Position numbers and translations under genes: made by a program. The notes under the pieces are model-generated. The model was given only the letters and a program-made list of their open reading frames with translations, was not told the DNA's origin and did not search any database. Positions 62,365 to 62,810 of a DNA stretch of 64,000 bases are shown one piece after another. Each line of letters opens with the position of its first letter. The first letter of the stretch is position 1. The stretch comes from Tuberibacillus sp. Marseille-P3662 (lineage in GTDB: Bacteria; Bacillota; Bacilli; Bacillales; Sporolactobacillaceae): the NCBI RefSeq assembly GCF_900178005.1, contig NZ_FXBS01000006.1, forward strand, positions 1,395,585 through 1,459,584. The letters run 5' to 3'.

Positions 62365-62810
62365 CCATTGCAGGAGCGTTGTCCCGCACTTGGCCCGAAA
62401 CGACACATACGTGTCCCGTATTTTTATTATTCTGTCCCGCAAAACTTTAATCTTGGAACGCACCTGGCCCATTGCAGGAGCGTTGTCCCGCACTTGGCCC
62501 GAAACGACACATACGTGTCCCGTATTTTTATTATTCTGTCCCGCTAAACTTTAATATTGGAACGCACCTGGCCCATTGCAGGAGCGTTGTCCCGCACTTG
62601 GCCCGAAACGACACATACGTGTCCCATATTTTTATTATTCTGTCCCGCTAAACTTTAATATTGGAACGCACCTGGCCCATTGAAGGGGCGTTGTCACACA
62701 CTTGGCCCGAAACGTCACAAACGTGTCCCGTATTTTTATTATTCTGTCCCACAAAACTTTAATCTTGGAACGCACGGGGACTATTGCAGGAGCACTCTCC
62801 CACATGATTA
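62365..62810. repeat. 104-bp tandem repeat, about 4.3 copies
   Basis: Units start at 62365, 62469, 62573, 62677 and 62781. Units 1-3 are more than 97% identical, unit 4 carries about 10 substitutions, and unit 5 is truncated. Each unit carries three GTCCCG motifs and two TGGCCC motifs. Confidence 0.9.

Follow-up and report, generated by a model that had tools for sequence, protein, structure and literature searches.

What does a tandem array of 104-bp units mean in the divergent promoter region of a polysaccharide operon: a multiplied regulatory platform, or the trace of a selectively irrelevant duplication? The question is raised by a 64,000-nt stretch of DNA from Tuberibacillus sp. Marseille-P3662 (contig NZ_FXBS01000006.1), hereafter the window, in which such an array separates a sugar-nucleotide operon from a gene transcribed in the opposite direction. 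The locus is organised as follows:

48713-62231, minus strand: sugar-nucleotide / glycosyltransferase / sulfotransferase operon of 13 genes (domain matches, gene gaps)
61518-62231, minus strand: glucose-1-phosphate thymidylyltransferase-like gene of the RmlA/SpsI type, first gene of the operon (PF00483, 4e-60)
62365-62808, no strand assigned: tandem array with a 104-bp unit (TRF, unit register, pairwise identities, repeat-family comparison)
62932-63762, plus strand: Rv2525c-like (DUF1906) glycoside-hydrolase-like gene with an N-terminal hydrophobic segment (PF08924, 2.8e-15)

The intergenic gap between the rmlA/spsI-like gene and the DUF1906 gene measures 700 bp, as given in a preliminary description of this locus. 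The array does not fill it, as was stated there, but takes up 444 bp, with 133 bp to its left and 123 bp to its right remaining free. The operon, previously counted as 14 genes on the minus strand, comprises 13 (62231 down to 48713). It is tightly packed after its RmlA/SpsI head and continues with RmlD, RmlC, GT2, 4,6-dehydratase, a second nucleotidyltransferase, GT1 and a PglD-like acetyltransferase, and further with a DegT aminotransferase, a 544-aa protein, a sulfotransferase, GT1+DUF4214 and GT2. Beyond the operon, an 87-bp gap is followed by a PRD regulator and PTS genes with a promoter-like site of their own. The presence of a CotH kinase and a SleB-like hydrolase among the nearby genes fits a spore-envelope neighbourhood.

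Several features of the operon deserve mention in their own right. The 544-aa ORF in its middle (52097-53731, minus strand) was without a Pfam family at E ≤ 0.001 and may encode a novel polymerase, flippase or transferase. The DegT ORF as mechanically called (53766-55049) overlaps the upstream PglD-like gene (54871-55518, minus strand) by 179 nt, and its Pfam match begins at residue 74 only; the true start is therefore probably an internal codon. It should be added that a sulfotransferase gene (Gal-3-O-sulfotransferase / Sulfotransfer_2-like; 51334-52074, minus strand) is located inside this rml-type operon, and that sulfotransferases were also found in or beside its homologs in Halalkalibacter lacteus and Peribacillus cavernae (L020:2968-3702 and 8390-8729; L023:4858-5613), a hint that sulfated glycans on the spore surface may recur with operons of this type.

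Elsewhere in the window, the CotH kinase gene (36798-37871, minus strand) lies beside a Pfam-less 226-aa ORF with 9/18-bp repeats (36643-36676; region 36077-37871), and ORFs in 32707-34266 (DUF6897/DUF2642) contain in-frame repeats of 15 bp (32947-32994) and 12 bp (34016-34049). These repeat-bearing ORFs near the CotH kinase may represent repeat-rich spore-coat proteins of the CotG/CotH kind. Furthermore, a full-length lysine riboswitch (RF00168, 82.5 bits; 44388-44575, minus strand) was identified upstream of a gene of the Na+/H+ antiporter family (NhaC-type, 42646-44250), presumably a lysine-regulated transporter.

Tandem repeats were called with TRF, which placed the array at 62365-62793 (period 104, 4.1 copies, 94% matches, 0% indels, score 746) and revealed no other large-period array within the 64-kb window. 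In unit register, four complete units follow each other head-to-tail (u1, 62365-62468; u2, 62469-62572; u3, 62573-62676; u4, 62677-62780), and a partial u5 extends from 62781 to about 62808 (24-28 nt), with 19 of 24 positions identical and similarity gone beyond. The first three units are 97-99% identical (u1-u2, 102/104; u2-u3, 103/104; u1-u3, 101/104), and u4 matches u1, u2 and u3 at 91-94 of 104 positions (88-90%, 10-13 differences). Both analyses thus confirm the layout reported before, namely a head-to-tail array of about 4.3 copies with three near-identical units, a diverged fourth and a truncated fifth. The copy number comes from one assembly, and short reads could have collapsed or mis-counted the near-identical u1-u3 (312 bp). 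At two positions u1 and u4 agree (A77/C88), whereas u2 and u3 share T77/A88, a pattern which points to an old copy next to DUF1906 and to recent expansion in mid-array.

Sub-segments of the array of 25 and 30 nt occurred four times each, compared with none in 100 shuffles. No further copy of the unit was found in the 64-kb window, either with three mismatches allowed or with blastn-short or low-stringency blastn. The inverted repeats flanking the array were short, crossing, chance-level pairs of 8-16 nt, on which ground a MITE-like reading was rejected. Being built of direct head-to-tail repeats with a unit longer than 10 bp in a non-coding intergenic region, the array has the layout of a promoter-region VNTR, or minisatellite.

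The array is non-coding, in concordance with the preliminary description: a period of 104 is not divisible by 3, the ORFs called there are artefacts of the reading frame, and the sole unit-registered ORF (33 aa) has a TTG start, is devoid of a Shine-Dalgarno sequence and differs between copies at 6 of 33 residues. Likewise, it was correctly stated not to be a CRISPR, as the units abut without variable spacers; no Cas-domain protein was present among the annotated ORFs of the window. Translations of the array ORFs had no match in a set of 5.8 billion proteins. Three repetitive false positives emerged from the exhaustive protein search and were rejected; one of them, P0147, is an unrelated satellite of 56 bp x 40. 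The latter is of interest by itself: on ENA metagenome contig ctg70299 (L027:5060-7276) a 754-aa ‘protein’ had been predicted from a tandem repeat with a 56-bp period, about 40 copies and 97% matches, and the case exposes a route by which non-coding satellites enter protein databases.

The interior of the unit was examined for motif positions and their phasing. The boxes that it contains are exemplified by the first one:

62380-62385, plus strand: box 1 of u1, TGTCCC (motif positions, phasing test, shuffle test)

Each unit has five TGKCCC(G) boxes, all on the plus strand and in the same orientation, at offsets 16, 27, 48, 69 and 101; in u1 they start at 62380, 62391, 62412, 62433 and 62465, and they recur every 104 bp in u2-u4. 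The box-to-box spacing is 11, 21, 21, 32 and 19 bp, and boxes 1 and 2 form a hexamer-N5-hexamer direct repeat, TGTCCC-N5-TGGCCC. Three GTCCCG and two TGGCCC per unit had been proposed; the repetition holds and the strict regularity does not, with exact counts across the array of 9 for GTCCCG and 7 for TGGCCC. Boxes 1 and 5 are mutated in u4 and degenerate boxes occur in u3 and u4 (e.g. GTCACA in u4); the whole array holds about 18-20 phased boxes.

The repetition was rarely matched by chance. In an unbiased test admitting any motif, five copies of one hexamer family appeared in 4 of 2000 shuffles, and the three occurrences of the exact 7-mer TGTCCCG were reached by 6 of 2000. The previously noted regular phasing of the short motif was recovered as well (P about 0.003): the circular R of the boxes was 0.982 at 10.5 bp and 0.996 at 10.6 bp, with P = 0.0027 at a fixed period of 10.4 bp and P = 0.003 over any period of 6-16 bp. 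Autocorrelation of the whole unit peaked at lag 21 (41/104, z 3.6), and with the boxes masked no lag was significant (lag 21, z = 1.8, P = 0.87 after the look-elsewhere correction). As the non-box positions are aperiodic, the similarity is confined to the boxes and the unit consists of unrelated sequence with discrete phased boxes; a decayed 10.5/21-bp simple repeat as the source of the phasing is ruled out on the same ground. Sites bound by protein along a single DNA face would be expected to show such an anatomy.

A further element of the unit is the following:

62402-62415, plus strand: quasi-palindrome GACAC-ATAC-GTGTC, then the T-rich tract TATTTTTATTATT (hairpin scan; 5 pairs, 3 GC)

The 14-nt quasi-palindrome is found again at 62506 and 62610, its u4 copy has an uncompensated mismatch, and it would make only a weak terminator-like hairpin or possibly a dyad site. 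The AT-rich and T-rich TATTTTTATTATT tract is present in every unit. Predicted intrinsic curvature of the array was unremarkable, at the 17th percentile of window segments.

Two promoter candidates were found in the gap:

62279-62305, minus strand: strict sigma-K-type match AC-N16-CATAtgaTA, for the sugar operon (consensus scan)
62842-62869, plus strand: weak sigma-A-like candidate TGGGCA-16-TATCAT (9/12), for the DUF1906 gene (promoter scan, candidate only)

The sigma-K-type match (62305-62279) is positioned between the array and the operon, some 60 bp away from the left end of the array; it is one of only three strict matches in 128 kb (both strands of the window) and likely serves as the operon promoter. 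The sps operon of B. subtilis has its sigma-K promoter just 5' of the first gene (PMC517825). The sigma-A-like candidate also lies outside the array. With the promoter candidates so placed, the array occupies a far-upstream position for both divergent promoters and would multiply upstream sites and not a promoter. The earlier suggestion of a multiplied binding site or promoter is accordingly upheld in its first half as regards the multiplication of a phased motif in a divergent regulatory region, and not in its second, the sigma-K-type match being outside.

The array was also scanned for the sites of sporulation regulators. The scan strings included RWWTRGGYNNYY for GerE, and WWRRACARNY and KRTAACARK for SpoIIID; B. 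subtilis consensus strings were used together with a C. difficile one from PMC5025042. The array and its flanks contained no full match to the GerE, SpoIIID or Spo0A consensus, and the GerE/SpoIIID sites envisaged earlier thus found no support; the RRACAR core occurs twice per unit against a background of 0.63.

The explanation we prefer, while granting it somewhat less than an even chance, is that the array represents a recently amplified, locus-specific promoter-region minisatellite (VNTR) whose unit is an iteron-like platform for a DNA-binding protein. Its parts differ in strength: judged from the sequence, it is very probable that protein did bind the ancestral 104-bp segment at several sites, and the recent tandem amplification of that segment may or may not be functional. 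The 104-bp upstream segment would have been tandemly duplicated by unequal recombination or slippage, the older diverged copy (u4 and partial u5) being the one next to DUF1906 and the young u1-u3 those next to the operon. The boxes on one helix face, together with the T-rich tract, would then form a multiplied docking platform for cooperative binding by a protein, which, once bound, would modulate the divergent DUF1906 promoter, the sigma-K-type operon promoter some 60 bp away from the left end of the array, or both. The array, its lack of coding function, the repeated and phased boxes and a promoter match beyond its limits are what the sequence shows; that a protein binds, that regulation is affected and that the copy number is unstable are what we infer here. 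As 104 bp approximates 10 helical turns, gain or loss of a unit would alter the number of sites while roughly keeping the rotational phase between distal elements and promoters.

The platform reading draws on the box repetition in the unit, the helical phasing, the confinement of similarity to the boxes and the position upstream of two divergent promoters. We also counted in its favour the hexamer-N5-hexamer pair, the sigma-K-type match nearby, TGTCCC arrays in phages and a precedent in Mycobacterium tuberculosis, the last two discussed below. Counted against it were the box substitutions at chance rate, the loss of boxes 1 and 5 in u4, a box pair not enriched elsewhere in the window, the lack of a cognate regulator nearby and of a window homolog of the neighbours of the phage arrays, the unremarkable curvature and the restriction to a single lineage.

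Sites of OmpR/PhoB-family response regulators are hexamer direct repeats with 5-bp spacers, several of them in phase. Boxes 1-2 (TGTCCC-N5-TGGCCC) resemble them, and further boxes follow at +21-bp steps on the same face; the difference from OmpR/PhoB systems is that the window lacks a response regulator gene. The regulators that the window does encode are of the LysR, MarR, GntR, BglG and PRD/Mga types, and no other obvious cognate binder was found near the array. To our knowledge, the hexamer matches no regulator-binding consensus.

A bolder version of the platform, which we consider improbable, would make the array a copy-number-tunable operator. A protein, possibly sporulation-specific, would polymerise along one face of the approximately 20 phased boxes and set the expression of the operon and the DUF1906 gene, and gain or loss of exact 10-turn units would serve as heritable, reversible tuning of the spore surface.

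The main rival to the platform is a neutral VNTR, i.e. a selectively irrelevant duplication in a long spacer, its boxes an accident or a dead relic, that has added about 310 bp between the promoters; we rate this as unlikely on the whole, though by no means far-fetched. Substitutions do not spare the boxes: 3 of the 13 variable columns fall within them versus 29% by chance, and u4 has lost two boxes, hence nothing points to purifying selection after the amplification. The box pair occurred 7 times in the window against 5.1 expected, five of the seven inside the array and thus without enrichment elsewhere. No cognate regulator emerged, and the locus itself is carried by one genome only, a singleton lineage: the RmlA/SpsI-like and DUF1906 proteins are 100% identical to Tuberibacillus sp. 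Marseille-P3662, with next best matches at 63% and 47% amino acid identity, respectively.

Searches in other genomes bear on the same rival. The strict box architecture had no match in 185,579 species-representative genomes (a set without the source genome) and none in metagenomes. Anchoring the scan of genome representatives on RmlA returned only a MAG at 36%, and BLAST of the array against phages and plasmids gave no match. At seven homologous loci in other Bacillales (rmlA-led operons or DUF1906 genes), the upstream regions were without large-unit repeats and without boxes. The array is hence absent from all other genomes, metagenomes and phages searched, and on the previously raised question of a dispersed repeat family these searches, which for the source genome cover the 64-kb window, favour a locus-specific element: no other copy of the unit was seen in the window, genome representatives, metagenomes, viral contigs, phages or plasmids. 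Against neutrality stand the box repetition (P about 0.002) and phasing (P about 0.003) amid unrelated sequence, which are hard to obtain by accident or decay.

The closest known class is that of promoter-region VNTRs, as in M. tuberculosis upstream of dop, cysG and lpdA, where the repeats measure 57 bp (dop), 54-56 bp (cysG, QUB15) and 58 bp (lpdA, VNTR3690) (PMC12817950). Their copy number varies and expression is altered (PMC12817950). Like these, the array has near-identical head-to-tail units of tens to about 100 bp directly 5' of a transcription unit, and is non-coding and, as far as searched, locus-specific; expansion and contraction by slippage or recombination are presumed for both. 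In difference to them, its unit is about twice as long and contains internal phased boxes, and the best promoter candidates lie outside the array, whereas the M. tuberculosis units contain the promoter.

This precedent is also what commends a reading by tandem promoters, in which each unit would contain a promoter and copy number would set transcription of the DUF1906 gene (plus strand) or of the operon. On the plus strand, u4 offers GTCACA-17-TATTAT (9/12) and u1-u3 the equivalent GACACA-17-TATTAT (8/12, read from sequence). However, none of u1-u3 reached the sigma-A scan threshold, and promoter-like matches were not above shuffles (3 versus 1.7 ± 1.3). Moreover, the units had no strict sigma-K, sigma-E or sigma-G/F match, the single relaxed sigma-K match within them being created in u3 by its G-to-A change, and the strict sigma-K-type match sits outside the array. 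We therefore regard tandem promoters as quite unlikely.

Phased TGTCCC boxes were encountered in phages, which brings in another origin: a replication origin or centromere-like site of a mobile element, with iteron-type boxes and an AT tract, captured in the chromosome and subsequently amplified. The K-degenerate pattern was found in viral contigs (IMG/VR) at 13 loci (L002-L014) of about seven unrelated families with 29-58% GC, as dense same-orientation TGTCCC boxes with 10/11/21-bp spacing (e.g. L011:10275-10420, L004:7850-8020, L003:864-932 and L007:5296-5431). Against these 13, two independent permuted-hexamer controls yielded 2 and 1 matches; the motif compared is only 6 bp long, and the controls are no more than these two. 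The phage arrays are mostly located in replication modules, inside a DnaD-like loader ORF or beside VapE/D5 and AAA_25 primase-helicases and RecE/YqaJ exonucleases; one precedes a small terminase gene. These iteron-type arrays in replication modules indicate that proteins do use a phased-box architecture, and the TGTCCC hexamer may be a favoured iteron core. The same K-degenerate pattern gave at least 120 loci in metagenomes, nearly all of which were either simple tandem repeats of 10-11 bp or members of the phage families already named; in none did the sequence between the boxes resemble that of the 104-bp unit.

With phage and plasmid iteron arrays the Tuberibacillus array shares same-orientation boxes at integral turns (10/11/21 bp) and an AT-rich tract, and with L002-L014 the TGTCCC hexamer and nothing beyond it. 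Unlike in iteron origins or centromere-like sites, its boxes are sparse (five per 104 bp), not contiguous, and nested in a higher-order 104-bp repeat; it is chromosomal, situated between housekeeping-type genes, and neither rep nor par is found next to it. To its left, 62 kb of ordinary chromosome contain no rep, par, integrase or phage genes, the array has no sequence similarity to phages or plasmids, and the phage proteins flanking TGTCCC arrays have no homologs in the 64-kb window. A relic of a mobile element is consequently very unlikely.

It had further been suggested that the array encodes repeated small RNAs, with a transcript from every unit. In the LhrC-like version of this, plus-strand transcripts of about 75-104 nt would each present three UCCC anti-Shine-Dalgarno motifs. 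LhrC of Listeria has three UCCC sites in 111-114 nt (PMC4132741) and is reported to be G-poor. The resemblance to LhrC1-4 comprises adjacent near-identical units of about 100 nt, three UCCC motifs in each unit (as GUCCCG, all on the plus strand), a G-poor strand (20% G), and a hairpin with a U-tract in each of u1-u3. In contrast to LhrC1-4, the units abut without an inter-gene spacer and have no per-copy promoter, u1-u3 staying below the promoter threshold, and no stable fold. Rfam gave no match at the gathering score or at E ≤ 10. Plus-strand folding of unit and array was no better than that of shuffles (z +0.7 to +2.0), and the z of -2.76 for the whole array on the minus strand arises from inter-unit pairing of the 14-nt quasi-palindrome and not from per-unit structure. 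The only terminator-like element is a 5-bp hairpin (three GC pairs) with a T tract, broken in u4 without compensation, and a period of 104 bp cannot accommodate both a promoter and an sRNA of about 110 nt. An LhrC-type array hence fails on promoter, terminator, stable fold and family match, and small RNAs are highly unlikely here.

That short-read mis-assembly produced the array or its copy number is scarcely credible: u1-u3 do differ at just 1-3 positions over 312 bp, exceeding typical short reads, and one assembly only is available, but unit-specific substitutions in a consistent gradient, clean boundaries and a diverged terminal copy are the pattern of a real array, and mis-assembly usually collapses repeats and seldom creates them.

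The general kind of element, a promoter-region VNTR, is already known; what is new here is the phased-box substructure and the sigma-K-type match outside the array. Bound by a protein or not, the array is a feature of a single genome, and its generality is limited accordingly. If the boxes are not bound, it would be a VNTR of strain-typing grade. If they are, it would represent a compact case of regulatory sites multiplied by whole-unit tandem duplication at a spore-surface polysaccharide operon, would add a new pair of box and protein whose hexamer recurs in phage iteron arrays, and would tie minisatellite dynamics to variation of the spore surface, a connection little explored in Bacillales.
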